Shown one piece after another: positions 639 through 33,046 of a DNA stretch of 64,000 nt. Made by a program: the position numbers and the translations under genes. Source of the DNA: Candidatus Latescibacterota bacterium. Lineage in GTDB: Bacteria > Latescibacterota > UBA2968. The stretch is taken from NCBI GenBank assembly GCA_965222605.1, contig OZ244960.1:5568001-5632000 (forward strand), read 5' to 3'. The notes under the pieces were generated by a model. That model made no database searches, had not been told where the DNA came from, and saw nothing but the letters and a program-made list of their open reading frames with translations. Positions within the stretch are counted from its first letter, which is position 1; each line of letters opens with the position of its first letter.

Positions 639-734
639 GTATAACGATACGCCGGTTTGCGAACCCCGAGCTTGTCGAGGGGTTGCCGAAGGCCAAGGCG
701 CGAATGCGCCGTAGCGCGAACCGTGCTGTTAGGC
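639..734 (-). repeat. attC-like recombination site (family A)
   Basis: GTATAAC(639-645)...GTTAGGC(728-734); arms GCCGGTTTGCG / CGCGAACCGTGC pair with an extra base; close paralogue at 13959. Confidence 0.85.
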
Positions 735-4237: not shown

Positions 4238-4345
4238 ACTTAACGTTCTCGGCACCCACAAACCTGGCATAGCCAGGTTGGGCGAATGACCGAGGCTGGG
4301 GGCCAAGGCGCGACAGCACCGCAGACCAACACCGACGTGTTAGGC
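4238..4345 (-). repeat. attC-like site
   Basis: ACTTAAC(4238-4244)...GTTAGGC(4339-4345), inner hairpin AACCTGGC/GCCAGGTT, 11 bp after the GrpB stop. Confidence 0.75.
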
Positions 4346-8379: not shown

Positions 8380-8419
8380 GAATGCTCCCTTGCTATAGAC
8401 TGGTGAGGGTTAATCCGAG

Positions 8420-8486
8420 CTTGCGGTCTCTCTTGCCGTGGCGAATAAAGTGCAAACGCATTAAGGCTACTACCGCGCTGTTAGCC
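8420..8486 (-). pseudogene. Remnant of histidine phosphatase 5-prime end plus attC half-site
   Basis: Matches 13841-13888 joined to 14042-14057; GTTAGCC at 8480-8486. Confidence 0.8.
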
Positions 8487-8519
8487 GAAGTGTGAGTGAC
8501 TTCGATGGACATGAGATCA

Positions 8520-8942
8520 TCACAAACTTGACCCCTTCAGCTGCTCAATGATCTTCTTATCTGCCTCGAATGCCATCTCTGTTGGCGGCCGATCAAGCGG
8601 GAAAAATTGGGCTTCAGAGGCATCGTCTCTCGCGACCAAATTACCTCCCTTCTCTCTTGCCCCAAACCATACTCCGACAACGCTTCGTTCAGGTGTGTGA
8701 TGTGTAGATAGCACGTTCACGATGTCACCGACTTCCACATCCAATCCGGTCTCTTCCTTAATTTCACGTACCATAGCATCCCGAACGTCCTCTCCAATCT
8801 CAACATTCCCGCAGGGAATACACCACTTTCCCTTGTTTGATCCGTACTTTCGACGCACCATCAAGATTTGTTTGCCTCTAAGAACCACTCCTGCAACTCC
8901 GGCTTTCACAAAAGGCCATTGGGTAGTTTTATGGTTCGTCAT
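8520..8942 (-). CDS. NUDIX hydrolase
   Basis: Nudix box GNVEIGEDVRDAMVREIKEETG. Confidence 0.9.
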   Translation of the reverse strand: MTNHKTTQWPFVKAGVAGVVLRGKQILMVRRKYGSNKGKWCIPCGNVEIGEDVRDAMVREIKEETGLDVEVGDIVNVLSTHHTPERSVVGVWFGAREKGGNLVARDDASEAQFFPLDRPPTEMAFEADKKIIEQLKGSSL

Positions 8943-8984
8943 GAGAGCCTCATCATGAAAGTTGGTGAGTATGCACGATAAAGA

Positions 8985-9190
8985 CGATAATTTATCGTAA
9001 CAAGAGATATGCCTTGGTCAAACAGGATGGGAACGAGACGAGGTCCTCTTTCAGATTTGTCCCCAAAGTAGAATCCGCCGCCATGTATCCATACAAAAAT
9101 AGGAGAGGGACTTTTTGAAGGCACTTTATAAACATCAAGCACATTTCTCTCGTGAGGGCAATAAGGAACATTCTGAAAGGTTGGTTCCAT
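8985..9190 (-). pseudogene. Alpha/beta hydrolase N-terminal fragment
   Basis: LDVY, WIHGGGF, INYRL, then joins the NUDIX cassette leader. Confidence 0.8.
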
Positions 9191-13139: not shown

Positions 13140-13282
13140 ACATTTACTCCATTTTCAATCTGCCTGATGGTATAACCTCAGCCAATATTATAAAAAAATA
13201 GTGCTATCCATTGGAATAAACAAATGGTTTTCTGGTTTTTGTTTTTTTGTAAACGTGGTGAGCAGTAGACGCCTGTCCAAAG

Positions 13283-13882
13283 TTAATGCTCAAATAAGAT
13301 GGCCCCAACAGCGTCGAGTCGATATTGGGTGCCATCGTATGCAATCGTCGTAACGGAGCATTCACGGATTATTTCACCACTGTATGGGTCATTGCAGAAT
13401 TTCGGACTGATGCGACTCAGTTCTTCAGACAAAAAAACGTTGAGAAGGAAGTCTGCCAAGATACCGCCATGGGTTACCCCTATCACAGTATCTTTGGATG
13501 ACTGAAGATAGCAATCGGAAACAAATGCTTCAATGCGTCTGCCAGCCTCAATGCTTGAATCGCCAACACTGGGCCGGTAATCTCGTTCTGTGGTACAATG
13601 ATCCCACTGAGCTATGAATTCATCGAAAGATTGGCCTTCGATGTCACCCCAATTCATTCGTTCACGTAGCCGTGAATCTTCAGTAACTTCAAGATTCAAA
13701 ATTGTGGCGATGATCTCTGCTGTCTCTCTTGTTCGTGCCAGTGGACTGCTGAAGATTCGTGCGATGCCGTTTGACGCTAACTTCCTGGCGAGTAGTTCTG
13801 CCTCTTCTTGACCTTTTGATGTCAATGAAGGATCACCGATCTTGCGGTCTCTCTTACCGTGGCGAATAAAGTGAAAACGCAT
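13283..13882 (-). CDS. Histidine phosphatase family protein (copy 1)
   Basis: RHG, SSPLARTRETA, THGG. Confidence 0.9.
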   Translation of the reverse strand: MRFHFIRHGKRDRKIGDPSLTSKGQEEAELLARKLASNGIARIFSSPLARTRETAEIIATILNLEVTEDSRLRERMNWGDIEGQSFDEFIAQWDHCTTERDYRPSVGDSSIEAGRRIEAFVSDCYLQSSKDTVIGVTHGGILADFLLNVFLSEELSRISPKFCNDPYSGEIIRECSVTTIAYDGTQYRLDAVGAILFEH

Positions 13883-13958
13883 TAAGGCTGCCTGTCTTCC
13901 GATTTTTCTTGTGCATAATTTGCCGGAGTGGGGTTGGGAGAACTCCTGCGCCGCTTGC

Positions 13959-14057
13959 GTGTAACGTTTCGCCGGTTTGCGAACCCCGAGCTTGTCAAGG
14001 GGTTGCCCGATAGGGCCAAGCGGCGTATGCCGCGTAGCGCATACCGCGCTATTAGCC
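13959..14057 (-). repeat. attC-like site (family A), one core box mutated
   Basis: GTGTAAC...ATTAGCC (paralogue at 8480 has GTTAGCC); close to 639-734. Confidence 0.85.
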
Positions 14058-14090
14058 GAAGTGTGAGTGACTTCGATGGACATGAGATCA

Positions 14091-14427
14091 TCACAAACTT
14101 GACCCCTTCAGCTGCTCAATGATCTTCTTATCTGCCTCGAATGCCATCTCTGTTGGTGGCCGATCAAGCGGGAAAAATTGGGCTTCAGAGGCATCGTCTC
14201 CCGCGACCAAATTACCTCCCTTCTCTCTTGCCACAAACCATACTCCGACAACGCTTCGTTCAGATGTGTGATGTGTAGATAGCACGTTCACGATGTCACC
14301 GACTTCCACATCCAATCCGGTCTCTTCCGTACTTTCGACGCACCATCAGGATTTGCTTGCCTCTAAGAACCACTCCTGCAACTCCGGCTTTCACAAAAGG
14401 CCATTGGGTAGTTTGATGGTTCGTCAT
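14091..14427 (-). pseudogene. NUDIX hydrolase copy 2 with 86-bp deletion
   Basis: Near-identical to 8520-8942 except for a deletion between two TCC triplets. Confidence 0.9.
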
Positions 14428-14482
14428 GAGAGCCTCATCATGAAAATTGGTGAGTATGCACGATAAAGACGGACGACATTTC

Positions 14483-14570: not shown

Positions 14571-15326
14571 CTACATGACCGGCCTGAATCTGGCTTGAAG
14601 GATCCTTTGGGCTGACAACTCACCAAAAGGCGCACCACAACACCTGACATCCTCCACAACCTTGTGGTAATCGTAACTCAATCTGTGATTTTCCACATGC
14701 CATTCCTGCCCATCCCACCACACTCTGGCATATCCAACTTGATGATCCCCATCAAACGGAAACCCAACTGAATCAATGATGCTATATCGCTGACCGCACG
14801 GAACGCCATAGGACGCGTAGTGAAGGTGTCCTGCCACAATCAGATTGGCCTTCGCATCCCCCAGCAGTGTCCTGGCCTCCTCTTCTGGAGTAACCGTCCG
14901 AAGACTGAACGGAACAGGTTGAAGAACCAATACACCGGTCACATCAGTAGGCGTTGCGTGCACAATGAGAAGATCATCCTCCGGAGACTGCCCTCCTGGT
15001 GGCGTTATCCTGTACTCAAAGGGCAGACCCTTCAGATAGCTCAAGCCATCTGTTCCTAGCTTCTCTCTCACCCAGTCCAGTCTTTCCTCGGAATACTGTT
15101 CATCAAAGACCAACAGGTCTGTGTTCCCGTAAATCGTGGGAGCGCCCAGATTTTGTATTGCGTCAAGACTCTCGACCGGGCGGGGTCCGTTCAGCACCAA
15201 GTCGCCAGCGACTACCAGACGATCATAGGGTTGGCTTTGCAGATCCTCAAGAACAGCGTTGAGTGCAGCGACGTTGCCGTGAATATCTGCAATTACCGCA
15301 ACTGAATATGACAGGGAATCATTCAT
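14571..15326 (-). CDS. Metallophosphoesterase family protein
   Basis: ADIHGN, GDLV, GNTD, GHLH. Confidence 0.9.
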   Translation of the reverse strand: MNDSLSYSVAVIADIHGNVAALNAVLEDLQSQPYDRLVVAGDLVLNGPRPVESLDAIQNLGAPTIYGNTDLLVFDEQYSEERLDWVREKLGTDGLSYLKGLPFEYRITPPGGQSPEDDLLIVHATPTDVTGVLVLQPVPFSLRTVTPEEEARTLLGDAKANLIVAGHLHYASYGVPCGQRYSIIDSVGFPFDGDHQVGYARVWWDGQEWHVENHRLSYDYHKVVEDVRCCGAPFGELSAQRILQARFRPVM

Positions 15327-15389
15327 TTCACATCTCCAAAATTTCGAGGTGGCGGAGAGTGGTTCTTGCGCGCTTTCAGTTTTTGCCGC

Positions 15390-15520
15390 TTGCGGTCAAA
15401 AACTTTTTGAACTGACCGTTCAGTCAAATGCCGTCCCGGTTTGGCACCCGAAAATAGCCATGTTTGGGGTTGATATTGGCACTTGTAATCTTGCACCGCC
15501 TTCTGGGCGAATGTCGAATC
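15390..15520 (-). pseudogene. Tyrosine recombinase (XerD/integrase-like) internal fragment
   Basis: AVQDYKCQYQPQTWLFSGAKPGRHLTERSVQKVF resembles the segment between box I and box II. Confidence 0.7.
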
Positions 15521-15530
15521 CTGCCCAAAG

Positions 15531-16130
15531 TTAATTCTCAAATAAGATAGCCCCAACAGCGTCGAGTCGATATTGGTTGCCATCGTATGCAATGGTCGTA
15601 ACGGAGCATTCACGGATTACTTCACCACTGTATGGGTCATTGCAGAATTTCGGACTAATGCGACTCAGTTCTTCAGACGAAAAAACATTGAGAAGGAAGT
15701 CTGCTAAGACACCGCCATGGGTTACCCCAATCACAGTATCTTTGGATGACTGACGATAGCAATCGGAAACAATTGCCTCAATGCGTCTACCAGCCTCAAT
15801 GCTTGAATCGCCAACACTGGGTCGGTAATCTCGTTCTCTGTTACAACGCTCCCACTGAGCTATGAATTCATCGAAAGATTGTCCTTCGATGTCACCCCAA
15901 TTCATTCGTTCACGTAGCCGGGAATCTTCAGTAACTTCAAGATTCAAAATTGTGGCGATGATCTCTGCTGTCTCTCTTGTTCGTGCCAGTGGACTGCTGA
16001 AGATTCGTGCGATGCCGTTTGATGCTAACTCCTTGGCGAGTAGTTCTGCTTCTTGTCGCCCCTCTGAGGTCAATGAAGGATCACCGATCTTGCGGCCTCT
16101 CTTACCGTGGCGAATAAAGTGAAAATGCAT
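15531..16130 (-). CDS. Histidine phosphatase family protein (copy 2)
   Basis: Near-identical to copy 1. Confidence 0.9.
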   Translation of the reverse strand: MHFHFIRHGKRGRKIGDPSLTSEGRQEAELLAKELASNGIARIFSSPLARTRETAEIIATILNLEVTEDSRLRERMNWGDIEGQSFDEFIAQWERCNRERDYRPSVGDSSIEAGRRIEAIVSDCYRQSSKDTVIGVTHGGVLADFLLNVFSSEELSRISPKFCNDPYSGEVIRECSVTTIAYDGNQYRLDAVGAILFEN

Positions 16131-16207
16131 TAAGTCTGCCTGTCTTCCGGTTTTTCTTGTGCACAATTTGCCGGAGTGGGGTTGGGGGGAACTTTTGTGT
16201 CGCTTGC

Positions 16208-16288
16208 GTGTAACGTCCAGCCGTGCACGAACCGCGCAGGGGTTGGACGAAGGCCGAATGGACGAAGCCATGCACAGTCGTGTTATGC
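16208..16288 (-). repeat. attC-like site
   Basis: GTGTAAC...GTTATGC with GTGCA/TGCAC arms, 15 bp after a stop codon. Confidence 0.75.
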
Positions 16289-16303
16289 GGTGTGCTCACT
16301 TCG

Positions 16304-18541: not shown

Positions 18542-19647
18542 GTTGTATGCCTCCAGGATAATGCCGGTGGTCCTGCCCAAAGTTAATACTCAAATAACTG
18601 ATGTTACGCAGTTTTAAGAATTTGTAGTTCATCAAAAGCATACCGAATGGCCTTGAGATAGAGTCTTGACCTGAGGGCAAAATGATTGAGGTGATGTTTG
18701 ACGCGCAGGCCTTCCAATTGAGCGGCGGCATAAATAGCCATAAAACAATGATTGCTTTGTGTACGCACGCGCCTTGTTGGGGACTTGGATAGGGCGGCAT
18801 TGGACTTGAGGGTTTTATGAAACGTCTCCACTTTCCATCGTTTTTGATAGATCGTTTCGATGGTTTCGCCATCACAAGTAAGATCACTACAAGCCAGAAA
18901 CATCTCCCCTGTGCTATCATCTTTGTTTGTAAAGACTTGCCGGATTAAAAGGACGGGAAAATCTAATCCTTTTATCCATGCTTGCACAGGCGTATCTTCT
19001 GTCAGGTTTTGAGCATCAATGCGTGCGAAACGTCCATCTCGTTTATCTTCATAGCTCAAGGCAACCGTCCTGTTAGATTTTATTGCGACAACGAAGTGCT
19101 TATCCAAGCTGTTGCGAATAAACTGTAAGTTTTCCTTTGCTGAGAACCAACTATCGGCCAATACATAGCGATATTTCAAGCGATTTTGCTTGCACACACC
19201 TAACATGTCCCGCATCAGGTCATTTTTTGTGACCAGGCTCTTGCGCTTGACGCGACGGGTCTTCACATCGGTATAGAGGGCCGGTTTGGTGATCAACTCG
19301 TAAGTCACGGGTAAGCTGACATCGCTTGCGTGATAGACACAATTAAGCAGATTGATACCCTTGACCGTGCGATTTTGACTGTGATCATAGTGCCAACAGA
19401 TTAAGTCATTCTCATCTGTATAAGGCTTTTCCTGGATCGTATCATCAAAGATGAGCACGCCATCATCCTGTTCGATGTCACGGATCATACCCTTAACCTG
19501 TCGCCACAGCGTTTTGCCATTATAGTCTGCTTGTGAGAGAAAACGCGTGACCCGATCATGGCTTATGCGGCCTTCCAACAGCGCGGATAAACCCGTTGCT
19601 GTGGTCGCGCCAAAGGAACTGAGGAGGTAATCGCTATACAATTCTAA

Positions 19648-20574
19648 GAAGCTGTTTTAAAACTATTGTGAGTGAAGAAAAGAGTTGAAAAAGCGTATTC
19701 ATCTGTCCAAATTCAGGTTATGCAAATCACCCTGAAACGAAAGGACAAAGATGAATACGCACAGGGAATATCCGACAAATGTCACCCAAGCGCAATGGCA
19801 ACTGCTGATCCTCTTGCTGCCTAAAGGTAAATGGCGAAAAGGGGGCTCTGGACGCCCACCTGCCAATTTGCAACAAGTGTTCAATGGCATCCTGTATCTG
19901 ACGAAGACCGGCTGCCAATGGCGCATGCTGCCTCCTACCTTTGGCTGTTGGCAGACCGTGTATGGCTATTTCAATCGTTGGCGCAAGCAAGGCATCTTTG
20001 AACGGGTGCAACAGGTGCTCACACAAAAAGAACGCAAACGACAGGGACGCAAGCCTACCGCATCAGCAGGCTGCATTGACAGCCAAAGTGTTAAGACAGC
20101 AACCCAAGGAAAGTCAAAGGGTTACGATGCTGGCAAAAAGGTCAATGGACGCAAACGCCATCTTCTCGTTGATACCCTCGGACTCGTCATTAGCACCTAT
20201 GTCTCACCTGCCAATCTCCAAGATCGAGATGGCCTCAAGCAGGTGATCAATCAGTATTTTGATAGCGGACAGACACGCTTACGCAAGCTATGGGTCGATG
20301 GCGGCTATCGCGGCGAAGACCTTAAAGAATGGGTCGCTGCTAAGAAGCACACACATAAGATTGATCTTGAGGTTGTCACCCCAAAAGGCAAAGGCTTTCA
20401 ACTCGTCAAACGCCGGTGGGTCGTCGAGCGCACCTTTGCCTGGTTATTTAATTTTCGCCGACTATCAAAGGATTATGAAGACTTGACCGACAGTAGTGAA
20501 GCCTTTATTTACATCGTTATGATTTACCTCTTAATCAACAGACTCGCTTAAGCGAGGGGTTTTAAAACAGCTTC
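19648..20574 (+). mobile_element. IS5 family element (IS1031-like)
   Basis: 16-bp TIRs GAAGCTGTTTTAAAAC; TAA target duplication. Confidence 0.9.
19751..20551 (+). CDS. IS5 family transposase
   Basis: TGCQWRMLP, IDSQSVK, GRKRHLLVDTLG, RWVVERTFAW. Confidence 0.95.
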   Translation: MNTHREYPTNVTQAQWQLLILLLPKGKWRKGGSGRPPANLQQVFNGILYLTKTGCQWRMLPPTFGCWQTVYGYFNRWRKQGIFERVQQVLTQKERKRQGRKPTASAGCIDSQSVKTATQGKSKGYDAGKKVNGRKRHLLVDTLGLVISTYVSPANLQDRDGLKQVINQYFDSGQTRLRKLWVDGGYRGEDLKEWVAAKKHTHKIDLEVVTPKGKGFQLVKRRWVVERTFAWLFNFRRLSKDYEDLTDSSEAFIYIVMIYLLINRLA

Positions 20575-20696: not shown

Positions 20697-21293
20697 TCAG
20701 TCAAATAAGATAGCCCCAACAGCTTCGAGGCGATATTGGTTGCCATCGTATGCAATGGTCGTAATGGAGCATTCACGCATTACTTCACCACTGTATGGGG
20801 CATTGCAGAATTTCGGACTAATGCGACTCAGTTCTTCAAACGAAAAAACGTTGAGAAGGAAGTCTGCTAAGACACCGCCATGGGTCACCCCAATCACAGT
20901 ATCTTTGGATGACCGAAGATAGCAATCGGAAACAAATGCTTCAATGCGTCTGCCAGCCTCAATGCTTGAATCGCCAACACTGGGCCGGTAATCTCGTTCT
21001 GTGTTACAACGCTCCCACTGAGCCATGAATTCATCGAAAGATTGTCCTTCGATGTCACCCCAATTCATTCGTTCACGTAGCCGTGAATCTTCAGTAACTT
21101 CAAGATTCAAAATAGTGGCGATGATCTCTGCTGTTTCTCTTGTTCGCGCCAGTGGACTGCTGAAGATTCGTGCGATGCCGTTTGATGCTAACTCCCTGGC
21201 GAGTAGTTCTGCTTCTTGTCGCCCCTCTGAGGTCAATGAAGGATCACCGACCTTGCGGTCTCTCTTACCGTGGCGAATAAAGTGAAAACGCAT
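20697..21293 (-). CDS. Histidine phosphatase family protein (copy 3; last codons altered by the IS)
   Basis: Near-identical to copies 1-2; original 3-prime end lies at 18583-18597. Confidence 0.9.
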   Translation of the reverse strand: MRFHFIRHGKRDRKVGDPSLTSEGRQEAELLARELASNGIARIFSSPLARTRETAEIIATILNLEVTEDSRLRERMNWGDIEGQSFDEFMAQWERCNTERDYRPSVGDSSIEAGRRIEAFVSDCYLRSSKDTVIGVTHGGVLADFLLNVFSFEELSRISPKFCNAPYSGEVMRECSITTIAYDGNQYRLEAVGAILFD

Positions 21294-21370: not shown

Positions 21371-21463
21371 GTGTAACGGTCGGGACCTGCGAAGCCGCCC
21401 TGTTTTTTAGGGCGGCTTGGGTGGCATCGGGCTGGGAGGATGTACGCAGGTCCCTTGTTATCG
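21371..21463 (-). repeat. attC-like site
   Basis: GTGTAAC...GTTATCG; arms GGGACCTGCG / CGCAGGTCCC; inner AAGCCGCCC/GGGCGGCTT. Confidence 0.85.
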
Positions 21464-21631
21464 GCAGTCGCGAAGGGGTGGTTTCGCCACTTTCAACCCC
21501 TGAGATCAGGGCGTGAATACCGCGAGCGTCATAGACAATCTGCTTTTCTGGTCTTCTGCCTTTTCAGGCATGCAGAGGTTCCATCTCAATTCTTCAGATT
21601 CACCCCCGACTGAACACAACTCGGTGGAAAA

Positions 21632-22493: not shown

Positions 22494-22634
22494 CCATAAC
22501 GTCTCGCCGGTTGCCGATGTGGCCGTGATCAGTTAAACAAATCGCTGCTTTTACAATCAGGAAACACAAAGCTTCACGAGCCATTTGGGTCGGAGCGACC
22601 GCAGGGAGCGGAGCCGGTCAACCGGCTGTTACAC
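22494..22634 (-). repeat. attC-like site (family B)
   Basis: CCATAAC...GTTACAC; arms GCCGGTTG / CAACCGGC; similar to 12345. Confidence 0.85.
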
Positions 22635-22709
22635 GCAGTTTTTTGGGTGGCACCTACATCAAATTACAATCGGGGCGGGAATAGAGCAGGCGACATCAGC
22701 ATGTTTTTT

Positions 22710-25208
22710 TTATTCATTCCGCAAGGCATCTACAGGATTTGATCGAGCTGCCTTCATTGTCTGGAAACTCACTGTGATCATGGCAATAAGGAAAGCCAAG
22801 ATACCACTTAACATAAAGAACTCAAATCCAAGATCTACCCGATACGCATAATTCTGAAGCCACTGCCACAGGGCATAGTAGCCAATCGGCCAGGCCAAGA
22901 GATTTGCAAGTGCGACCAACTTTGCAAAATCACTGGATAGCAACATAACAATATTGAATACAGACGCTCCCAATACCTTGCGAATGCCGATTTCTTTTGT
23001 ACGGTATTGCGCACTCAATGTGGCCAACCCAAGTAACCCCAAGCAGGCAATCAAAATACCAAGGGTTGAAAAGAAACCAAAAAGATAGCTCAGTTTTCTT
23101 TCATTTTTATAGATTCGATCCAAATTCTCATCAAGAAAAGAAAATGTGAATGGACGATTGGGTATATACCTTTCCCAGACTTTTTGTACAAATGCCAGTG
23201 TTTGAGATAAATCTTCAGATTTGACCTCTAGGTATAGTAGCCTTGCCTCATGAAATTCTGCAACCAATACGAGTCGTCCGATTTTTTCGTCAAGAGGTTT
23301 GTAATGAAAATCTTTGACAACACCGACGACTGTGCCGGAGCGTAGTCCATCTGGGTAGAACGTGCCTCCAACCTTCCAGGCAAATCGTTTCCCTATTGGA
23401 TTTGTCCAACCCAATTGCTCGACCGCTGTTTCATTCAAGATAAACTGCTCGTCTAATTTTTCCCTCAGTCTTTGCGGGTTTGTTGTTTCGGCATATGATC
23501 GCGTGAAATTCCGGCCTGATACGCATTTAATGCCATAGAAATCTAGAAAATCCTCATCCACGATTATCACATCCATACTGTACGTGGATTTTCCTTCGGG
23601 ATGGAATGTCTCTACTGTTGCTCCTTCTCCAACAGGGCCACGGGTGGTTGTTGCTCTGAGAATATTGGGATGCGTCGTGAATGCCTGCTTGATGGCGTTG
23701 TATTGGCTCTTGAAAAGCGTGGGATTGATCATCTGGTTGCTATTCGCTGCCTCAAAAATTGGAACTTCAATAATCTGCTCGTGGTCGAATCCCAGATTCT
23801 TATTTCGAAGAAATTTCTGTTGACTGTAAACACCCCAAGTGACAACCATCAATAAAATGGCAAGAGCAAATTGTCCTACAACCAAACTCTTGCGAAGCCG
23901 AGTAGAGACGTTTGTAGCGGATTTACCTCTCAACATTGAAACAGGGCGAAATGTCGATAAGACAAATGCCGGATAACTCCCTGCCAGAATACCGACGATG
24001 AATATAAGACCGAAAAGGCTGAGCAATAACTGGGTTGTGTTGACATTGAGTGTAATAGCGCGATCAAAAAACGAATTGAAAGTTGGCAATGCCAATTCTA
24101 CCAACACCAAAGTCAAGATAAGCGCCATAATAAGCGCCATACAAGCAAAAAATATAGATTCGCCCAAAAATTGTGTGATGAGCTGCAATCGGTTTGCACC
24201 GACAACCTTACGAAGCCCGACCTCTCGCCTCCGCCCAATTGCACGAGCAGTTGTTAGGTTTATAAAATTCACACAGGCAATTACTAAAATAAAAATAGCA
24301 AGCAAAGAAAACAAATACACATTTTGAATGTCACCATGAGGTTTACTGGTCTCTGGAGTACCACGATTCTCAATTTTGATGCCATAATCATGATTGGAGT
24401 ATAGATGGATGCGGTTTAGGGGCTGCAAATGATATTGAATGTTATTTGCAGCTGCTTCGCCCATGTATTTCGGAATCAGATCTGAAAGTTTGCCTTCAAG
24501 TTGATTCGCATCATAACCTTCTTTAAGCAAAATATAGCTTTCTACAGGACGCCCCCCTCTCGGTTTCCAAGCCATCCATTTTTCTTGCCATCGCCCATTT
24601 TTAGTCGCCGATAAAATATCGAACCGAATGGTCGTCTGCTCAGGCATATTTTTTAAGACGCCTGTAACGTGATGCGCATAATCTTTGTCGTATTCCTCGA
24701 TCAGAATGGTTTTGCCAATCGGATTTTCAGTGCCAAACAGTTTGTGTGCAAGTCTTTGAGTGATTAAAACGGAACCTGGTTCTGAGAGAACCGTTTCGGG
24801 ATCGCCTTGAATCAGTGGAAAGTCAAAAACCTGTAGAACATTCTCGTCTGTAAGGCAAAAGGCTTGTTTGTATATTCTCTTATTGTCAGCAATTATTGTT
24901 CTTTGCCAGCGATGGATACGCAAAGCCTCAGAAATTTCAGGATATACATCCTGATTCAAGACTTCTACGAGACCTCCTAATGTGCGCTCACTAAAAGCTG
25001 CCTGGTCAACTGTTTTAGTCTCTCGAATCACCCTGTAAATTTGATCTCGATTCCTTTGGTTCTGATCAAAACCTAATTCATAGTCGATATAGAGGCCTAT
25101 CAGGATACAACAAGCCAAACCAATGGCTAATCCGATAATGTTCAGAGCTGAGTAGAAACGATGGTTTATCAGGTTTCTCAGCATTATTTTGAGATAATTT
25201 TTCAGCAT
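22710..25208 (-). CDS. ABC transporter permease (MacB/FtsX type)
   Basis: MLKNYLKI, IACVNFINL, KEIGIRKVLGAS, NPVDALRNE. Confidence 0.9.
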   Translation of the reverse strand: MLKNYLKIMLRNLINHRFYSALNIIGLAIGLACCILIGLYIDYELGFDQNQRNRDQIYRVIRETKTVDQAAFSERTLGGLVEVLNQDVYPEISEALRIHRWQRTIIADNKRIYKQAFCLTDENVLQVFDFPLIQGDPETVLSEPGSVLITQRLAHKLFGTENPIGKTILIEEYDKDYAHHVTGVLKNMPEQTTIRFDILSATKNGRWQEKWMAWKPRGGRPVESYILLKEGYDANQLEGKLSDLIPKYMGEAAANNIQYHLQPLNRIHLYSNHDYGIKIENRGTPETSKPHGDIQNVYLFSLLAIFILVIACVNFINLTTARAIGRRREVGLRKVVGANRLQLITQFLGESIFFACMALIMALILTLVLVELALPTFNSFFDRAITLNVNTTQLLLSLFGLIFIVGILAGSYPAFVLSTFRPVSMLRGKSATNVSTRLRKSLVVGQFALAILLMVVTWGVYSQQKFLRNKNLGFDHEQIIEVPIFEAANSNQMINPTLFKSQYNAIKQAFTTHPNILRATTTRGPVGEGATVETFHPEGKSTYSMDVIIVDEDFLDFYGIKCVSGRNFTRSYAETTNPQRLREKLDEQFILNETAVEQLGWTNPIGKRFAWKVGGTFYPDGLRSGTVVGVVKDFHYKPLDEKIGRLVLVAEFHEARLLYLEVKSEDLSQTLAFVQKVWERYIPNRPFTFSFLDENLDRIYKNERKLSYLFGFFSTLGILIACLGLLGLATLSAQYRTKEIGIRKVLGASVFNIVMLLSSDFAKLVALANLLAWPIGYYALWQWLQNYAYRVDLGFEFFMLSGILAFLIAMITVSFQTMKAARSNPVDALRNE

Positions 25209-25389
25209 GTGTCTGCCCCCAAAGAAGTGATTTCGGTTATTGGCAATTTCAGTTCTCATGAAATCAACATAATGGATGCACTCTGGGGATTATTGAGGTA
25301 GAGTATGAAAAGGAGGTTGGGGTGGAAGGCTGTTCTGTCTTTGCCTGCCTGCTACAGGTGTTTTGTTTTTCTGGGGCGGGGAAAATTGC

Positions 25390-25469
25390 GTATAACTACG
25401 GGATTAACGAACTGTTACGGTAATTCATACCAAATCTATGTATCTCCGAGTAGGAAGATGTTGTTAGAG
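25390..25469 (-). repeat. Possible degenerate attC-like site
   Basis: GTATAAC...GTTAGAG between the TA pair and the permease; weak arm pairing. Confidence 0.35.
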
Positions 25470-25497
25470 ATAGTGAAGATACCTGATGATAGCAGTA

Positions 25498-25800
25498 TTA
25501 CACTTTATTGCGCGCCTCTAACCATCGCTTTAGCGAACGTTGGCTCTCTCCTGAAGGTCGGCCAGCCCATACATTTTCGACGCTAATATCCTCATCCAGA
25601 TCAGGCCAATGGATGCCTTCACCTCGACCGATGAGTCGCCAATTATTGCGCTCTTGAGGAGTGCCATGCAATAGACGAGGATACCATTCTAACGGGACGC
25701 TTATGCTTCGCCCATCAACTAAGTCTATCATTAGAGACTCATCGTCGATAGAGATACGCTCTGCAAGCGTAGGCTGAATTTCAATCGTTGAAATACTCAT
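25498..25800 (-). CDS. DUF2442 protein (putative TA partner)
   Basis: DGRSISVPLEWYPRL, GIHWPDLDEDISV. Confidence 0.9.
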   Translation of the reverse strand: MSISTIEIQPTLAERISIDDESLMIDLVDGRSISVPLEWYPRLLHGTPQERNNWRLIGRGEGIHWPDLDEDISVENVWAGRPSGESQRSLKRWLEARNKV

Positions 25801-26017
25801 TCCAAAACTCCACGATATCGTCTTGTTTTTCCTCAATAATCCTTCTGATACGCCTCAGATCAGCACTGCGAAAACCTCTGCTTCTCTGTAATCGGATAGG
25901 TTCTATCCAAAACTTTGCGATAGAATCATCTCTTTCCACATGAACATGAATCGGTTCATCCCGGTCACCTGCATAAAAGAAAAATCGGTAGGGACCATTT
26001 GAAAAAATAGTTGGCAT
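25781..26017 (-). CDS. DUF4160 protein (putative TA partner)
   Basis: YRFFFY, EPIHVHV, AKFW. Confidence 0.9.
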   Translation of the reverse strand: MPTIFSNGPYRFFFYAGDRDEPIHVHVERDDSIAKFWIEPIRLQRSRGFRSADLRRIRRIIEEKQDDIVEFWNEYFND

Positions 26018-26051
26018 GTAATATATATCATTGTCCTGCAATGATGTAGAT

Positions 26052-26088
26052 ACTAAAAGCCCACGTACTTTGACTGTGGGCTTTTAGT
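26052..26088. terminator. Intrinsic terminator at the array/core boundary
   Basis: ACTAAAAGCCCAC / GTGGGCTTTTAGT 13-bp stem. Confidence 0.75.
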
Positions 26089-26122
26089 GTGATTCCTACC
26101 TTTCGCAACTGGTTTTTATAGA

Positions 26123-26872
26123 TCAAATTTCGGTCTTTTCTTTTAAGGAGAGAAGTTGATCGCGTAGCTCTGCGGCGCGTTCGAAGTCTTCGAGGCCCAC
26201 GGCTTCGCGGATCTGATCGCGCAGGTTCTGTGACAGTGTTTTGGGGCGGTCGCGACGAATCTCGTCTGCCCACTCCTGGAGGAAGGCGATTTCTTCACTT
26301 TCGTCAATGAGGTCGTGCCGATCAAATTCCTTAAAAAAGGACTGGAGTTCGTCAATACCTGTGTCAATTTTTGACAGTGCCATATCGTAGGCTTCGCGTT
26401 CGAGATACATCAGGACTTCAGCCCGTACGCGGTGTCCAATGACAAAGGGGCGACAGTGCTCAAACGCCATACGGTCTTCCTCGTCTTCTGCGTATTCTTT
26501 GACAAAATCGAAAAGTGCGAGATTGCGTTCGGCGTCTTTTTTGGCGTTGAGATATTCGCCTATTTCGAGAAAGCTGATGCGGCGATGATAATATTGGTGG
26601 GCTTCCATTTGGAGGGCCATGCAGCTTTCAGAATCGAGCACAAAGTCTTCTGGACCGCGTTTTTTCGCCTGCGCTTTGTAATAGTGCAAGAGCGATTCAC
26701 ACCCTTCGGGCTGTTGACCGTCGGGGCGACCGGTGACATCCATTTGCAAGATGCCCATTTCGATGCGGAGTTGAACTTTTGCGCGACCATCATCTCCTAT
26801 AATTTTGCGAACGCACAATTGACCGGGTTCACAAGGCCAGTCATCCAGAAGTGGCTGAATATCCTTACTCAT
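26123..26872 (-). CDS. UvrB/UvrC motif-containing protein
   Basis: GRPDG; C-terminal EDFERAAELRDQL. Confidence 0.8.
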   Translation of the reverse strand: MSKDIQPLLDDWPCEPGQLCVRKIIGDDGRAKVQLRIEMGILQMDVTGRPDGQQPEGCESLLHYYKAQAKKRGPEDFVLDSESCMALQMEAHQYYHRRISFLEIGEYLNAKKDAERNLALFDFVKEYAEDEEDRMAFEHCRPFVIGHRVRAEVLMYLEREAYDMALSKIDTGIDELQSFFKEFDRHDLIDESEEIAFLQEWADEIRRDRPKTLSQNLRDQIREAVGLEDFERAAELRDQLLSLKEKTEI

Positions 26873-26969
26873 CGGTGCGTATCCTCCATTGATAAATTGA
26901 CTGAGGAAAATAAGCTCAAAGGCAGTTTACCATAATCACCAAAGGTTGTCAAGAAATTAGCCTGTCCCG

Positions 26970-28007
26970 CTAATCGACTGATACACCCAGTTCATTTGCT
27001 GTTTCGACTGTGTTGTCCCAGGTTTCGTCTTCAATAAAGATGCCTTCGGCTTCGCGTTTGGTGCGTGTGTCGTGTTCTATTTCCCCTGGGAGATAGATTT
27101 TATCGACACCGGGCTGGATGCGAGAGGACTTGATCCAGTCACAGAGACGGCCAATTTCGTTGAGATAGTCAGAGAGATCGATAAAGCTGTCGATTTTGAT
27201 GGCGATGGCGATATAGCCACTGCCGCCTCGCGTGGGTTGTTCTGAACTGCATCCCGCCCATGAGAGGCCGCCCGCGATGGCGTCGATCATCATGCCCAGG
27301 CCATATCCCTTGTGGCCTTGTGGCCCGCCCAGAGGCAGCATCGCCACGTCGTTACCTTTGAAGCGATTGGGGTCATTCACGGGATTGCCGTCTGCATCTA
27401 CGAGCCAGCCATCGGGTGTTTGCTGTCCGCGCGCGCGATACACATCGACTTTGCCACCGGCAGACATACTGGTGGTCATGTCGAGCATGAGGGGAGGACC
27501 ATTGGGTGTGGGGGTGCTGAAGGCAATGGGATTGGGAGGCAGACGTCGGCTCGTGCCGCCAAAGGGGGCGGTGAATCGCCCGCCGCCATTGAGCATGAGC
27601 AGGCCAATGCAGTTGCGTTCAGCCGCTTTGGGCGGATAATCGCCCAGGCGACCGATGTGACTGGATCGGTGAACGGCTACGGCGCCGATGGTGTGTTCAA
27701 GGGCGCGGTCGGTAGCCATTTGCATGGCTTTGTGGGCGACGACAATACCGATGGTGCGCTCGGCATCAATAACGGCAGAGACCGGGGTTTCTCGGATAAT
27801 TTTGAGTTCGCTTACGGGCTTGATATTGCCGCTTATGATGGCGCGAATATATCCCGGCGTGCGAATAACACCGTGCGAGTCGTGCCCGTAGAGGTTGGCA
27901 TCCACGAGGTGGTCGGCTACAATATGGGCCTGATCTTCTGGAAATCCCGCAGCGCTGTAGAGTTCGCGTTGCAGGGTTCGAAGGTGCGTTGCGTCAATAA
28001 TGGGCAT
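26970..28007 (-). CDS. Ldh_2 family oxidoreductase
   Basis: GHDSHG, HIGRLG, GHKGYGL. Confidence 0.9.
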   Translation of the reverse strand: MPIIDATHLRTLQRELYSAAGFPEDQAHIVADHLVDANLYGHDSHGVIRTPGYIRAIISGNIKPVSELKIIRETPVSAVIDAERTIGIVVAHKAMQMATDRALEHTIGAVAVHRSSHIGRLGDYPPKAAERNCIGLLMLNGGGRFTAPFGGTSRRLPPNPIAFSTPTPNGPPLMLDMTTSMSAGGKVDVYRARGQQTPDGWLVDADGNPVNDPNRFKGNDVAMLPLGGPQGHKGYGLGMMIDAIAGGLSWAGCSSEQPTRGGSGYIAIAIKIDSFIDLSDYLNEIGRLCDWIKSSRIQPGVDKIYLPGEIEHDTRTKREAEGIFIEDETWDNTVETANELGVSVD

Positions 28008-28054
28008 ATAGTTATGTCCTTTCGAAAAGAATGAGCGTGTGTGCCAGAGTTCAA

Positions 28055-29200
28055 CTATTGGATCGCCTGGCGAACCCAGTCAAGCGCGGAGAGCGGCATG
28101 ATACCGTAGTTGTAAAAGGCGAATTTGGTCACGCCTTGTTCCTGGGCCGCCTGAAGATTGGCACAGAGGGTTTTTGCATCGGGGGAGGCTGGGGGATAGG
28201 CTTGAAGTCCGACAACGAGTTGGTCCGGGCTCTGGATGATAGGTAAAAGTTCTGAGACTCGCATTCTGGTGCGTTGGGGATCGGCAGTATAAGAAAGAAT
28301 TTCTACACTGTCAGCAATTTGTGCAATGGCTTTGGGATTCGATCCCGTGATTTTTGAATCGCCCATCAAGATATAGGAGAGCGGGACATCAACGGACTCT
28401 TTGAGTTCACGCACGAGGGATGTGACAATTTCTTCGCGCATGGCGTCAAATGCTTCGAGGTCTGGTATTGTGCGTTTGAGTTCTGTGATCGTTTCCCGAA
28501 CGGGTTGACCAGTATCAAAGGCCGTGCGGATTTTTGCGGTGACAGCACTTTGTAACTGCTCGATATCGATATTGCCTTCCATCGCTTGTTTTTTACAGCT
28601 ATCGCAGAAGCAGAGTGAAAAGAGGTAGCGTCCGCCAGAACCCAGGTCAATACCGTGTTTGGCGTGATGATGAAGATGGCCCCAGCCGGAGTAGGCGAGG
28701 GATTCGCATTCGAGGAGGGAGATGTCGTAGTTGAGCACCAGATCGCGAGAAAGCGCGATGGCAAAGGCGCGTACGTCTGGGTTTGCAGGGCAGAGGGCCG
28801 ATGTGCTGATGTCACCTGTGCAGCGGACTTCGGCACATTCGGGATGGGATTGCGCCTGATAGGAGTTGTGAAAAAAGACGGTCCAGGAATTGAGATTTAT
28901 ATCAGCGGATGATGCGGCTTTTGCGGCTTCGCCCCACCAGTTTTCGTTTTGCATCAAAGGGCTGACGTGTGGTTTGATCGCACCGTAAAGCGATTCCTGT
29001 GGCTCGAAATAAATCGCTGCCTGTGAGACCTCGAGTGTGTTGTTGGCAGGTAAATGGGGACGCAGCATGTCGAAGGTATGGTAAGCCGATGCGAGGTTGA
29101 TGGCGTCGAGTTTAATTTCTTCGCGGAGTTTGTGAAGAACGGCGTCATAACCTTCGTCGCGTAAATCCCAGGGATAAGTCCACATGGTGGCGTCAGGCAT
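28055..29200 (-). CDS. Hypothetical glycoside-hydrolase-like protein
   Basis: YPWDL, LASAYH, LCPANP; 381 aa. Confidence 0.6.
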   Translation of the reverse strand: MPDATMWTYPWDLRDEGYDAVLHKLREEIKLDAINLASAYHTFDMLRPHLPANNTLEVSQAAIYFEPQESLYGAIKPHVSPLMQNENWWGEAAKAASSADINLNSWTVFFHNSYQAQSHPECAEVRCTGDISTSALCPANPDVRAFAIALSRDLVLNYDISLLECESLAYSGWGHLHHHAKHGIDLGSGGRYLFSLCFCDSCKKQAMEGNIDIEQLQSAVTAKIRTAFDTGQPVRETITELKRTIPDLEAFDAMREEIVTSLVRELKESVDVPLSYILMGDSKITGSNPKAIAQIADSVEILSYTADPQRTRMRVSELLPIIQSPDQLVVGLQAYPPASPDAKTLCANLQAAQEQGVTKFAFYNYGIMPLSALDWVRQAIQ

Positions 29201-29347
29201 TGGGATGCTCCTTTCTCTGTTTTTGTCATGGTATTTTCGTTTTGGATAATTTCAAAGCGATTTTTGAAACGGGTTGAAAGGTGATTGACTTTTTTGCTAA
29301 AATATAGTATAACCTGTTTTTGTATTCAACACTGTTTGGAGGAATGG

Positions 29348-30361
29348 ATGACAAAACTCGGATTGGGTGTGATTGGATGCGGCAATATGGGGGCGAGTCT
29401 GGCAAATGGTGCGCGGGGTTTGGACTGCGCGGAAGTGGTTTGTGTTAGCGATGTAGATGGGAAAAAAGGCCGAGCACTATCTAAAAAAATGGACTGCGAT
29501 TACGAGGCGGATTATCACGCGATGCTGGCGCGGGAGGATGTGCGGGCAGTCATGATCGCCACGCCGCCGTTTTTGCATATTGATCCCACGATTGCAGCAG
29601 CCCGAGCGGGGGTGCATGTGTTTTGCGAAAAGCCCATGTCGCCGACGCTGGCTGGGTGTGATGCGATGATCTCCGCGTGTGAGCAAGGCGGCGTTGCGTT
29701 GGGTATTGGGCTGGTGTGTCGCTTTCACCCGGTGCATCGCAAGGTGCGCGATTTGGCTCGCGGGGGCGATTTGGGTTCGCCTTTGTGTTTGATGGTGCAT
29801 CGCCTGGGCGGTGGATGGGGCGGTGTTTGGACGGCAACCTGGCGAGAGTCAAGAGCCAAAAGTGGCGGTACGCTGATGGAAGTGAATGCGCATGAAATCG
29901 ATTTTATGCGTTTTGTGATGGGCGATGCGGAATCGGTTTCTGCGGTGGGGGGGCAGTTCGTGCAGATGGAGACGGATTTTCCAGATGTGGCACTCGTATC
30001 GATCCGATTCAGAAACGGTGGAGTAGGCGTATTGCATTCCAGTCAGGCAAGTGCTATTGGCGGTTATGGCGGGCGGTTGGATTGCGCCGAAGGCTCGGTG
30101 GCCTTTCCGTCGTTTTGGGGTGGTGAAGGTGGTTTGCGCTACAAGCGATACGATGGGGATGAGACGACGATTGCCGCGTCGGATTTATCGCAAGATGAAA
30201 GCCCGGTGAGCCAGGAAATTCGCGCGTTTTGCGAAGCGGTACTCAATGGGGAGGACCCACCGGTGTCTGGTGTAGATGGTCGGGCAGCTGTGGAGATTGC
30301 GTTGGCAGCTTATCAGTCCATTGAAACGGGCGAAACAATTGCGCTTCCGTTTGAGGAATGA
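29348..30361 (+). CDS. Gfo/Idh/MocA oxidoreductase
   Basis: GVIGCGNMG, FCEKP, HEID. Confidence 0.9.
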   Translation: MTKLGLGVIGCGNMGASLANGARGLDCAEVVCVSDVDGKKGRALSKKMDCDYEADYHAMLAREDVRAVMIATPPFLHIDPTIAAARAGVHVFCEKPMSPTLAGCDAMISACEQGGVALGIGLVCRFHPVHRKVRDLARGGDLGSPLCLMVHRLGGGWGGVWTATWRESRAKSGGTLMEVNAHEIDFMRFVMGDAESVSAVGGQFVQMETDFPDVALVSIRFRNGGVGVLHSSQASAIGGYGGRLDCAEGSVAFPSFWGGEGGLRYKRYDGDETTIAASDLSQDESPVSQEIRAFCEAVLNGEDPPVSGVDGRAAVEIALAAYQSIETGETIALPFEE

Positions 30362-30393
30362 CGCTTGTTGTTCACAGATCAGGATGAAAGATC

Positions 30394-31632
30394 ATGGCGC
30401 GAAAATTTGAGATTCCAGAATTTTACAAAAGTCCGATCATTTCGCAGGTCAAAAGAGCGCGACAACTATCGGATCCCAAAAAGCGCGATTTGCAGCCCTC
30501 GGTGCTGGATTTTGGGCCTGTGCGATTTTTTTTGGCGCGGCATTTTGGGTTTTGCTTTGGCGTGGAGAATGCCATTGAAATTGCGTATAAGACCCTGGAA
30601 GCGCATTCGGACCGACGCGTGTTTTTCCTGAGTGAGATGATTCACAATCCCAATGTGAACGCAGATTTGCAGGATCGCGGTGTGCAGTTTATGTTTACGC
30701 CGTCTGGCGAACAGCTTATTCCGTGGGAAGAACTTGTACCCGAAGATATCGTGGTCGTGCCTGCTTTTGGTACAACTGTGGGAACTCAAGAGGAATTGTC
30801 CCGGCGGGGGATTGATCCATATCAGTACAATACCACATGTCCATTTGTCGAAAGGGTGTGGAAGCGCAGTGCCCAATTGGGAGATGGGGATTATACTGTC
30901 GTCATTCACGGGAAGACCATACACGAAGAAACGCGGGCGACTTTTTCACACGCGGTTCAAAATGCACAGGTCGTGGCTATACTGAATTTGAAAGAGGCGC
31001 GTATTTTAGCAGATATTATTCGGGGCAAACGCGATCTCGGTGCTTTTGAACGGTATTTTAGACACAAGTGCTCACAGGGATTTGACCCTCGCATCCATTT
31101 GTCGCGCATCGGTGTGGTGAATCAGACGACGATGTTGGCTACTGAAACGCATGAAATCGCCGGGATCATTCGGCAGGCACTCATGGATCGGTACGGAGCG
31201 GAGAATATCGAAGACCATTTTGCGGATACATCAGATACGCTTTGTTATGCCACCAACGAAAATCAGAATGCGACGTACACACTTATTGAGCAAGAAGCAG
31301 ACCTCGCTCTGGTTGTAGGGGGCTACAATTCTTCGAATACGTCGCATATTGTGGAATTGTGCGAGGAAGCCATGCCGACGTTTTTTGTGAAGGATGCCGA
31401 GGAGTTGATTTCAGAACGCGAAATTCGGCATTATTGTCTCAAGTCGCACGGGGTGGAGATTGCCGAGAATTGGTTGCCCGATAAAAGACCTGTGGATGTC
31501 GCACTGACATGTGGTGCCTCGTGTCCCGATGCGGTGGTGGATGGTGTGCTGTTGCGCGTGTTGTCTTTTTTTTCTCAGACGCGGGATGTGCAGGGTGTGC
31601 TGGCGTCGTACAGGGCGATGGAGCCTGTGTAA
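30394..31632 (+). CDS. ispH: 4-hydroxy-3-methylbut-2-enyl diphosphate reductase
   Basis: FGFCFGV, TTCPFV, NQTT, NSSNT. Confidence 0.93.
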   Translation: MARKFEIPEFYKSPIISQVKRARQLSDPKKRDLQPSVLDFGPVRFFLARHFGFCFGVENAIEIAYKTLEAHSDRRVFFLSEMIHNPNVNADLQDRGVQFMFTPSGEQLIPWEELVPEDIVVVPAFGTTVGTQEELSRRGIDPYQYNTTCPFVERVWKRSAQLGDGDYTVVIHGKTIHEETRATFSHAVQNAQVVAILNLKEARILADIIRGKRDLGAFERYFRHKCSQGFDPRIHLSRIGVVNQTTMLATETHEIAGIIRQALMDRYGAENIEDHFADTSDTLCYATNENQNATYTLIEQEADLALVVGGYNSSNTSHIVELCEEAMPTFFVKDAEELISEREIRHYCLKSHGVEIAENWLPDKRPVDVALTCGASCPDAVVDGVLLRVLSFFSQTRDVQGVLASYRAMEPV

Positions 31633-31649
31633 TAGGGGGTGAGAGGCGT

Positions 31650-32066
31650 TTACTCTTCTCCTAACACTTCGAGAAGCCTGCGAACTTTTTGGAGTGATTC
31701 CTTTGTTTGCAATCGAAGCAGTGCAGAAAGCACGGCTTTTCCGTCTTCAGAAGAGAGTAAAATATTCAGTTCTCTGAGTTGTTCTGTTGTGAGTGTATTG
31801 AGCCGGTCGCTTACAATACTGCCCAACTCGGGATCATGCTCCCGACGGTAAACAATAGTCGTTTCGGGATTCGCACCCAAAAGGACATCCGGCGAAACGC
31901 CCAGAGCAGTGGCAATAGCGACCAGGGTATCGGCTCGGGGTACTTTTGTCTCGGCTTCAATGCGAGATACTGTCGCCTGGTCAATATTGGCAGCATGGGC
32001 GAGGTCGAGTTGAGACCAGTTTTTTGCGTGCCGTAATTTCCTTATTTTTCGTCCGGTTACGATCAT
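31650..32066 (-). CDS. XRE family HTH regulator
   Basis: SQLDLA, QATVSRIE. Confidence 0.85.
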   Translation of the reverse strand: MIVTGRKIRKLRHAKNWSQLDLAHAANIDQATVSRIEAETKVPRADTLVAIATALGVSPDVLLGANPETTIVYRREHDPELGSIVSDRLNTLTTEQLRELNILLSSEDGKAVLSALLRLQTKESLQKVRRLLEVLGEE

Positions 32067-32993: not shown

Positions 32994-33012
32994 TATCTCA
33001 CCTTTTCATGGG

Positions 33013-33041: not shown

Positions 33042-33046
33042 GGAAC

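Follow-up and report, generated by a model that had tools for sequence, protein, structure and literature searches.

The 64,000-nucleotide (nt) stretch of Candidatus Latescibacterota bacterium DNA analysed here (the window; assembly GCA_965222605.1, contig OZ244960.1, positions 5,568,001–5,632,000) carries a long array of gene cassettes with attC recombination sites, and inside this array lies a 121-nt piece of a tyrosine recombinase gene (15392–15512, minus strand). Comparison of sequences indicates that this piece probably derives from the array's own non-canonical integrase, an IntI-like recombinase that heads attC arrays and is devoid of the insertion specific for canonical integron integrases (IntI). 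The relic and its immediate surroundings comprise the following features.

15392–15512, minus strand: relic of an array-associated IntI-like tyrosine recombinase gene; its 40 codons correspond to residues 261–300 of the 376-residue protein P0001.
15323–15613, minus strand: mechanically called open reading frame (ORF) of 96 residues enclosing the relic; chimeric, recombinase-like in its middle part only.
15513–15530, minus strand: left junction; a 3' flank that the three histidine-phosphatase copies have partly in common gives way, at the breakpoint, to the recombinase piece.
15340–15391, minus strand: right junction together with the metallophosphoesterase cassette's 5' leader; recombinase gene and leader are joined at a 5-nt microhomology, ACCGC, common to both.

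Protein alignment of the relic with P0001 gives 39 identical residues out of 40. At the DNA level (blastn) the relic is 99.2% identical over 121 nt (E ~5e-56) to the intact gene of G016, a sister genome in the genus (L034 10180–10300, L046 10780–10900), and 95% identical to the gene of a further one (G026), a similarity far above chance level. An earlier sequence-only reading had described this place as a tyrosine recombinase fragment of about 40 codons, and its description holds: the quoted peptide occurs letter for letter, on the minus strand like the neighbouring cassette genes, and is fused just behind phosphatase copy 2, with its onset 19 nt past the stop (15531) of that gene. The relic ends 65 nt ahead of the metallophosphoesterase gene start (15326).

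A protein search for longer relatives gave 11 proteins at E ≤ 0.01 among 55 candidates (best E 2.3e-19). The best full-length matches are IntI-like recombinases of 350–400 residues heading attC arrays and not prophage or XerC/D integrases. The Phage_integrase profile, proposed earlier as a check, matches full-length P0001 (PF00589, E 5.8e-42) and not the 96-residue ORF, for which Pfam returned 0 families at E ≤ 10, because the recombinase piece is too short. The 5' part of this ORF is an other-frame overlap with the histidine-phosphatase 3' end, and the next cassette's leader makes up its 3' part; the ORF tail recurs at the end of an unrelated protein, P0011.

The relic covers exactly the region where canonical IntI possesses about 40 extra residues. 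This additional domain of IntI, with the I2 helix, is situated around patch III and comprises about 35–40 residues. The catalytic residues R-K-H-R-H-Y (R224, K249, H314, R317, H340 and Y349), which are invariant in 40 full-length family members, all lie outside residues 261–300, so that the relic cannot encode an enzyme. The fragment is almost certainly dead and non-functional.

The 121-nt piece is present in 7 of the 21 genus genomes with differing end points. In G016 and G026 it forms part of the recombinase gene; G011, G017 and G023 have relics of 100, 100 and 79 nt, respectively, and a more divergent match of 101 nt (78% identity) is contained in G015 (L188). Scraps of 37 and 26 nt occur deep within the arrays of G016 and G026 themselves, and the G017 relic is fused directly to 37 nt of attI. 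Taken together, the varied ends of the relics and the attI fusion in G017 show the window piece to be the largest surviving scrap of an old integrase–attI module in the array. The module from which it came is separate from the module at the array origin. Retention of overlapping pieces (about 100 nt in the window's genome, G000, and in G011, G017 and G023, scraps in G016 and G026) with different end points could also point to a remaining function, i.e., a small protein, or a promoter or binding site that acts on the metallophosphoesterase cassette downstream. This is very unlikely: the pieces shrink differently in each genome, down to 26–37 nt, their neighbours differ between genomes, the ORF is a chimera of three unrelated sequences, and the overlap is explained by nested erosion of one ancestral remnant.

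The left junction also exists in one other genome of the genus (L054), which has a further internal deletion, and in L051 both junctions are different. Window positions 15340–15399 are 86% identical to L046 17950–18014, where an attC R' box precedes the leader. For the right junction, integrase action on a secondary site at G|TT was considered and rejected, since the sequence does not fit and the join is the 5-nt microhomology. The relic is a decay product of illegitimate deletions, not of site-specific recombination.

The gene is found in G016 and G026 directly after a chromosomal block of LytB, GFO/IDH/MocA, 381-residue protein, Ldh_2 and UVR-motif genes, which is about 92% identical to window positions 26116–35346. 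The end of this block is the origin of the window's array, and in the sister genomes the recombinase gene points from it into the array. The G016 gene is full-length and 97% identical to P0001; the G026 copy has an in-frame deletion of residues 17–142. The corresponding part of the window contains the following features.

26123–26872, minus strand: UVR-motif gene; it closes the conserved chromosomal block and serves as synteny anchor of the array origin.
25450–26115, minus strand: DUF4160/DUF2442 gene pair, at the site of the sister genomes' recombinase gene and the 5' part of attI; the conserved block ends at 26116.
25393–25449, minus strand: 57 nt from the 3' side of the attI-like site; they run up to the GTTA at which the first cassette, that of an FtsX-type permease, starts.

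The gene pair at 25450–26115 is toxin-antitoxin-like; DUF2442 is named by Pfam, and the upstream small ORF is presumably DUF4160. The 57-nt segment is 100% identical to L046 11206–11262, which lies 75 nt downstream of the intact G016 recombinase gene. The 121-nt relic and these 57 nt of attI are the only platform remnants in the window.

Eleven copies of the attI-like site are available from six genomes of two genera (three in G016, two each in G026, G017 and G089, one each in G000 and G088), and the site is situated 75–150 nt from the recombinase gene stop. All copies are alike up to GTTA (GTTG in one of them), and similarity is lost at or within one base of it. For example, the homology between G016 and G026 stops at about L046 11265 / L048 10877, and the arrays beyond have just one 61-nt match in common. 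To judge from the sequences, this loss of similarity is the signature of cassette insertion at the attI crossover (G|TT).

Two or three attI-like copies exist within one array in several genomes, some of them after a recombinase gene 3' end. Such copies are located as follows.

L046, 19880–20045: attI-like copy.
L185, 3701–3747: attI-like copy.
L047, 8082–8501: attI-like copy.
L187, 1611–1668 and 6330–6366: attI-like copies.

The second remnant in G016 comprises the recombinase gene 3' end with a full attI copy, and the third copy comprises 47 nt of attI. Such tandem platform remnants are not predicted by simple attI × attC insertion.

An origin of the piece from a housekeeping Xer or prophage integrase gene, chance similarity or random captured DNA, unlinked to the array, would be consistent with the failure of Pfam to recognize the 96-residue ORF. 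Scores on the XerA-type model NF040815 also favour it, as those of full-length relatives (P0001 211.8 bits, below the cut-off of 220; P0009 222.7 bits, above it) are almost as high as those on the integron model. However, the DNA identity of 99% to an intact gene at the syntenic array origin of a sister genome excludes random captured DNA, the alternative that had been offered in the sequence-only reading. In addition, two XerC/D-type genes are encoded by G000 itself (313 and 308 residues), and they are just 34–36% identical to P0001; no attC matches surround Xer genes; and the recombinase gene is present in only 2 of the 21 genus genomes, which is not the behaviour of a housekeeping gene. From this sporadic occurrence and the separate Xer genes it follows that the enzyme is not the chromosome-dimer resolvase. 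Overall, an unlinked origin is the least probable of the explanations and can be considered extremely improbable.

P0001 matches Pfam families Phage_int_SAM_4 and Phage_integrase. The integron integrase model TIGR02249 is matched by P0001 with 211.9 bits in two stretches and by P0009 with 213.1 bits, neither reaching the cut-off of 265, and canonical IntIs of the same phylum score 350–488 bits; in genome searches the model was matched solely at profile positions 1–173 and 235–315. On the XerC and XerD models (TIGR02224/5) P0001 scores 181 and 177 bits, against cut-offs of about 330. Its best match in the PDB is an integron integrase, VchIntIA (2A3V), both by sequence (E 6.4e-40) and by fold (E 5.6e-16). 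At the insertion site P0001 possesses 25 residues compared with 67 in VchIntIA, and alignment with ten canonical IntIs of the phylum demonstrates that the insertion of about 40 residues is absent from both architectures (types A and B, described below). The earlier statement that the IntI-specific segment is missing is therefore correct for the gene family. Its placement of that segment just before the W-x-F motif needs amendment: most of the extra residues precede the motif, some follow it, and the segment lies on both sides.

In the AlphaFold model of P0001 (m2b53b9228709; mean predicted local distance difference test score, pLDDT, 88.2) there is no helix between helices 260–273 and 291–304. 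The model includes an extra N-terminal alpha/beta domain (residues 11–80) of four short strands and helices, confidently predicted. Lambda integrase chains are aligned with P0001 by Foldseek over about 350–370 columns, and the predicted N-terminal domain may be an arm-type DNA-binding domain.

The IQ-TREE phylogeny was built from 57 rows (one long row was left out) and 276 columns with Xer as the outgroup, sampling the phylum and metagenome loci. Canonical IntI proteins form one clade (100/99), which contains none of the insertion-less proteins; support for the monophyly of the latter is weak (73/18), and Latescibacterota types A and B are intermixed. As Xer is the only outgroup, the direction of change is not settled by this tree.

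The association with attC arrays was assessed with a home-made attC scanner, which looks for TAAC and GTTA cores 50–175 nt apart with an anchored inner duplex and derives orientation from spacer asymmetry. The duplex threshold was −9.5 for the main counts and −7.5 for the metagenome loci, the latter giving about one false match per 35 kb. A generalised version (AAC...GTT cores) was abandoned, since 38 kb of non-array DNA yielded 7 matches and the array itself 4.

Two architectures were distinguished in the phylum. Type A has the P0001 architecture with the N-terminal domain and is 45–97% identical to P0001 (2 of the 12 genes are cut or truncated). Type B (50–57% identical) lacks both the N-terminal domain and the IntI insertion. 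The 12 type-A loci, from genera g1, g3, g6, g8, g10, g12 and g24, have 34 co-oriented attC matches in 121 kb downstream, 0 in the opposite orientation, and 1 match in 87 kb upstream; at least one match is present at 10 loci and at least two at 9. At 4 of the 7 type-B loci, 13 divergent matches lie upstream of the gene, which is the classical integron layout; among the others, one locus has 3 downstream sites in the opposite orientation and two loci have a single match each. Consequently, the missing insertion is not tied to the co-oriented layout. Type-B loci heading arrays in the divergent layout include L160–L164 (320–331 residues; G107, G102, G106, G105 and G070), with 6 sites within 4.4 kb in L162. 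As a positive control, 8 canonical IntI loci of the phylum gave 11 divergent upstream matches, at 5 of the loci. At the same threshold of −9.5 the scanner gave no match in the 55 kb flanking three Xer genes, nor in a background of 115 kb made up of the window's non-array part, L190 and the three Xer loci. In G016, comparison of the ORF list with attC positions shows one large ORF in most stretches between the sites.

Among 80 metagenome loci with relatives, the short spacing between boxes I and II (87–99 residues) was found in 78, with a spacing of 61 in one and no value in another; the spacing of about 130 residues typical of canonical IntI was found in none of the 80. Seven co-oriented sites lie downstream of the gene in L084 and three each in L058 and L072; clusters of at least two matches are present in L058, L072, L084, L082, L079, L089, L077 and L128. 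Most metagenome contigs are shorter than 5 kb, too short to judge, and they add little.

The attC sites beside the two kinds of enzyme differ, according to a preliminary comparison in which the canonical sample is small and the scanner may bias the figures. Sites beside canonical IntI in the phylum (n = 10) have two single-base bulges on the 5' arm, whereas those beside types A and B (n = 44 and 14) have zero or one single-base bulge, or symmetric mismatches. A conserved C (5') and G (3') just outside the R boxes reach 1.3–2.0 bits in sets of 37, 14 and 15 sites, compared with 0–0.1 bits in the canonical set. The attC sites of type-A arrays have a median length of 130 nt and are often branched.

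The window's genome, G000, is a single contig of 6.34 Mb, and across this whole contig no TIGR02249 match exceeds the cut-off (12 matches at E ≤ 0.001, the best with 88 bits against 265), which answers the earlier question of whether a canonical IntI is encoded there. A second recombinase copy was not found in G000 either. With neither an intact recombinase copy nor a canonical IntI in the genome, the array is an orphan. By the IntegronFinder definition it is a cluster of attC sites lacking integron integrases (CALIN): the window holds the attC array and the attI remnant without an integrase. G016 and G088 hold an intI-like gene, attI and an array, the integrase being non-canonical.

The arrays could alternatively have been built and served by canonical IntI, either lost since or acting from other genomes through transfer of array segments. 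In that case the insertion-less recombinase would be a bystander, selfish or domesticated, settling near attI or attC. Such a role is rather unlikely, although it has more in its favour than the other alternatives. Canonical IntI is encoded in 17 of the 168 phylum genomes, and a frameshifted gene exists in the same family (G001), so that cassettes could have been made elsewhere and spread. Array DNA of G000 and G016 is 98.9–99.8% identical (window 22699–25449 versus L046 19987–21128 and L185 87–2823), and the adjoining core block is about 92% identical. This suggests a recent exchange of array segments among species of the genus, and the figures of 99–99.8% against 92% imply that such segments move between species. 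Six copies of an insertion-less relative of 314 residues (45–49% identity to P0001) occur in G071 and three in G072, one of the copies being located within an array, so that some relatives may invade arrays instead of serving them. A bystander role was also concluded for 21 such cases by Cury 2016 (PMC4889954), whose section on these recombinases describes them as lacking intI_Cterm, located near attC, always with fewer than 3 sites, and judged that they 'are not IntI'.

The bystander role is opposed by several features of the loci themselves. As a single-copy gene it has a fixed position at the head of arrays in at least 7 genera, invariably on the side of attI and with a consistent orientation. 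The attI-like site 75–150 nt from its stop is conserved, with similarity lost at or within a base of GTTA. No TIGR02249 match above the cut-off was found in any of the 21 genus genomes or in the array-bearing 1–5-contig assemblies G010, G067, G070, G088, G089, G102, G105, G106 and G107. The arrays of insertion-less enzymes also differ from the canonical ones in the phylum by the C/G pair flanking the R boxes and by fewer single-base bulges.

Derivation from the array's own insertion-less integrase remains the preferred explanation, and, besides the canonical IntIs and the multicopy relative, the following points weigh against it. The intact gene is kept in only 1 of the 21 genus genomes, and arrays persist without it. 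No attC was found at 2 of the 12 type-A loci (L154, with two stop codons, and L157, truncated), and the counts are not independent, given the phylogenetic relatedness of the loci. The scanner was home-made and not the model of IntegronFinder, and it missed 2 of the 6 window attC sites listed below (4238–4345 and 13959–14057). The junctions of the relic are illegitimate (5-nt microhomology) and hence uninformative on recombinase activity. Finally, the additional domain is described as defining and necessary for integron recombination in the relevant passage of Ghaly 2022, citing Messier & Roy 2001 (PMC9668308).

The following mechanism probably accounts for these data, with recombinase activity on attI and attC and the order of decay events inferred from the anatomy of the loci. 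The platform gene encodes the 376-residue IntI-like recombinase, composed of N-terminal alpha/beta, SAM-like core-binding and catalytic domains without the I2 region of about 40 residues. The intact gene is placed between the last conserved chromosomal gene and the attI-like site, co-oriented with the cassettes, which join this site at G|TTA. Its product would be the array's own integrase, recombining attI with the long attC sites of the cassettes. In the window's genome, the DUF4160/DUF2442 pair has taken the place of the platform copy at the origin, of which 57 nt of attI survive. The 121-nt piece would be what microhomology-mediated deletions left of another, older platform copy further inside the array. 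The orphan array would now be remodelled only by insertion sequence (IS) elements, deletions, duplications and homologous exchange. The earlier suggestion that the fragment is a relic of a non-canonical integrase family is thereby supported as far as the anatomy of sister genomes goes, the activity on attC and attI being a supposition.

Window positions 1 to about 22,700 are occupied by unrelated small genes, nearly all on the minus strand. Pfam assigns the cargo to APH, GNAT, GrpB, methyltransferases, NUDIX, three histidine-phosphatase copies, a metallophosphoesterase and toxin-antitoxin-like pairs. Some of the cassette genes are separated by long imperfect palindromes, which have TAAC...GTTA cores and an inner stem.

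22494–22634, minus strand: attC, 141 nt, after the permease cassette.
21371–21464, minus strand: attC of the usual architecture with a different stem sequence.
16208–16289, minus strand: attC upstream of phosphatase copy 2.
13959–14057, minus strand: attC upstream of phosphatase copy 1, with a mutated R'' core (TAAT); missed by the scanner.
4238–4345, minus strand: attC spotted by eye; missed by the scanner.
639–734, minus strand: attC.

The site at 13959–14057 was missed by the scanner because of its TAAT core. One architecture combined with different stem sequences means that the stems co-vary, as in attC sites. Further attC matches lie past the left edge of the window (L189 8128–8189 and 19549–19623; G000:C1:5548001–5568000), which brings the array to a length of about 35 kb. 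A candidate canonical intI at 29285–30361 (plus strand, divergent from the cassettes) was rejected, as Pfam identifies it as a GFO/IDH/MocA oxidoreductase.

The array is battered, with IS elements (18604–19641 and 19751–20551), truncated genes and duplicated blocks. Three histidine-phosphatase cassettes (13283–14083, 15531–16271 and 20697–21293, minus strand) are 94–95% identical, and each starts just past an attC R' box. The same 12 nt follow the stop in all three copies before they diverge, and the third copy is severed from its tail by two IS elements. A 27-nt repeat (15519–15545, 13271–13297 and 18571–18597), considered as an IS end or attC, proved to be the phosphatase 3' end with these 12 nt. 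A fourth phosphatase scrap of 56 nt is located at 8415–8470. The NUDIX cassette is duplicated together with its flanks (8471–8986 versus 14042–14471, 97–98% identity), the second copy being truncated; at 8440–8470, most of the attC that separated NUDIX from the phosphatase scrap has been lost.

Two further observations concern other loci of the phylum. The only canonical intI in the window's family (L040, G001:C423, 1214–2205, minus strand) is split into two overlapping frames and represents a frameshifted pseudogene or an assembly error. For the 314-residue relative (loci L177, L178 and L170), the copy inside an attC array has sites on both sides (L177), and two G072 copies lie about 400 nt downstream of canonical intI genes; this relative may be a mobile element targeting integron DNA.

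Like the sedentary chromosomal integrons of Spirochaetota, such an array is a long run of cassettes that are promoter-less and for the most part co-oriented; every cassette ends in an attC that forms an imperfect palindrome with TAAC...GTTA cores, attI lies between the gene 3' end and the first cassette, and the cassette junction is at GTTA. The co-orientation of the recombinase gene at the array head has a counterpart in Spirochaetota as well, where the intI gene is 'inverted', according to the part of Ghaly 2022 (PMC9668308) devoted to these integrons. Unlike the Spirochaetota enzymes, the recombinase described here lacks the IntI-specific insertion, stays below the TIGR02249 cut-off, falls outside the canonical IntI clade and possesses an N-terminal alpha/beta domain of about 80 residues. 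The attC sites differ too, being long, often branched, with 0–1 single-base bulges and a C/G pair outside the R boxes.

As in the CALIN delineated by Cury 2016 (PMC4889954, section on these elements), several attC sites occur with no IntI within reach or anywhere in the genome. In contrast to CALIN, the cause of orphaning is readable here, namely, decay of a non-canonical platform to a 121-nt scrap and 57 nt of attI. The pseudogene search of that survey, as its corresponding passage states, used the intI_Cterm profile, which cannot match the insertion-less recombinase family.

The 'integron-like' subgroup of simple tyrosine recombinases, in which the insertion is 'not fully conserved' according to the relevant part of Smyshlyaev 2021 (PMC8138268), and the NCBIfam family NF040815 ('site-specific tyrosine recombinase/integron integrase', XerA type) have the same core-binding and catalytic architecture, with IntI and XerA as the closest matches. 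Unlike the members covered by that part of the source and by NF040815, where neither a tie to arrays nor attI appears, the insertion-less proteins considered here are systematically tied to attC arrays. A full-text literature search, supplements excluded, turned up no account of an insertion-less integrase at the head of attC arrays, nor any of Latescibacterota integrons.

The integrase of this genome's cassette array of about 35 kb is lost; what kind of enzyme it was can still be read from its fossil, the 121-nt scrap. Both the literature and IntegronFinder define integron integrases by the extra IntI domain, and arrays without such a gene are filed as CALIN. Canonical IntI acts on attC as a folded single strand (the bottom strand), which it recombines with double-stranded attI. 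If the insertion-less clade runs attC arrays, a part of the environmental 'orphan' arrays would be complete integrons of a second type. Structure-specific recognition of attC would then be possible without the I2 helix, or the sites would be recombined differently.

Insertion-less recombinases could be both working integron integrases and the ancestral state, so that attC arrays and attI predate the I2 domain; the sequences allow this only as a tentative proposal, which is somewhat less likely to be right than wrong. According to it, canonical IntI would have gained the I2 domain later, together with the paired extrahelical bases of attC, and one branch would have added the N-terminal DNA-binding domain. 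The Latescibacterota arrays would then represent a living 'proto-integron' with longer, more sequence-defined sites (C/G pair, 0–1 bulges). This would answer the question, formulated as a chicken-and-egg paradox in the pertinent passage of Escudero 2016 (PMC4792948), of whether attC sites or the I2 domain came first. The origin of integrons would thereby become testable, with natural intermediates in hand.

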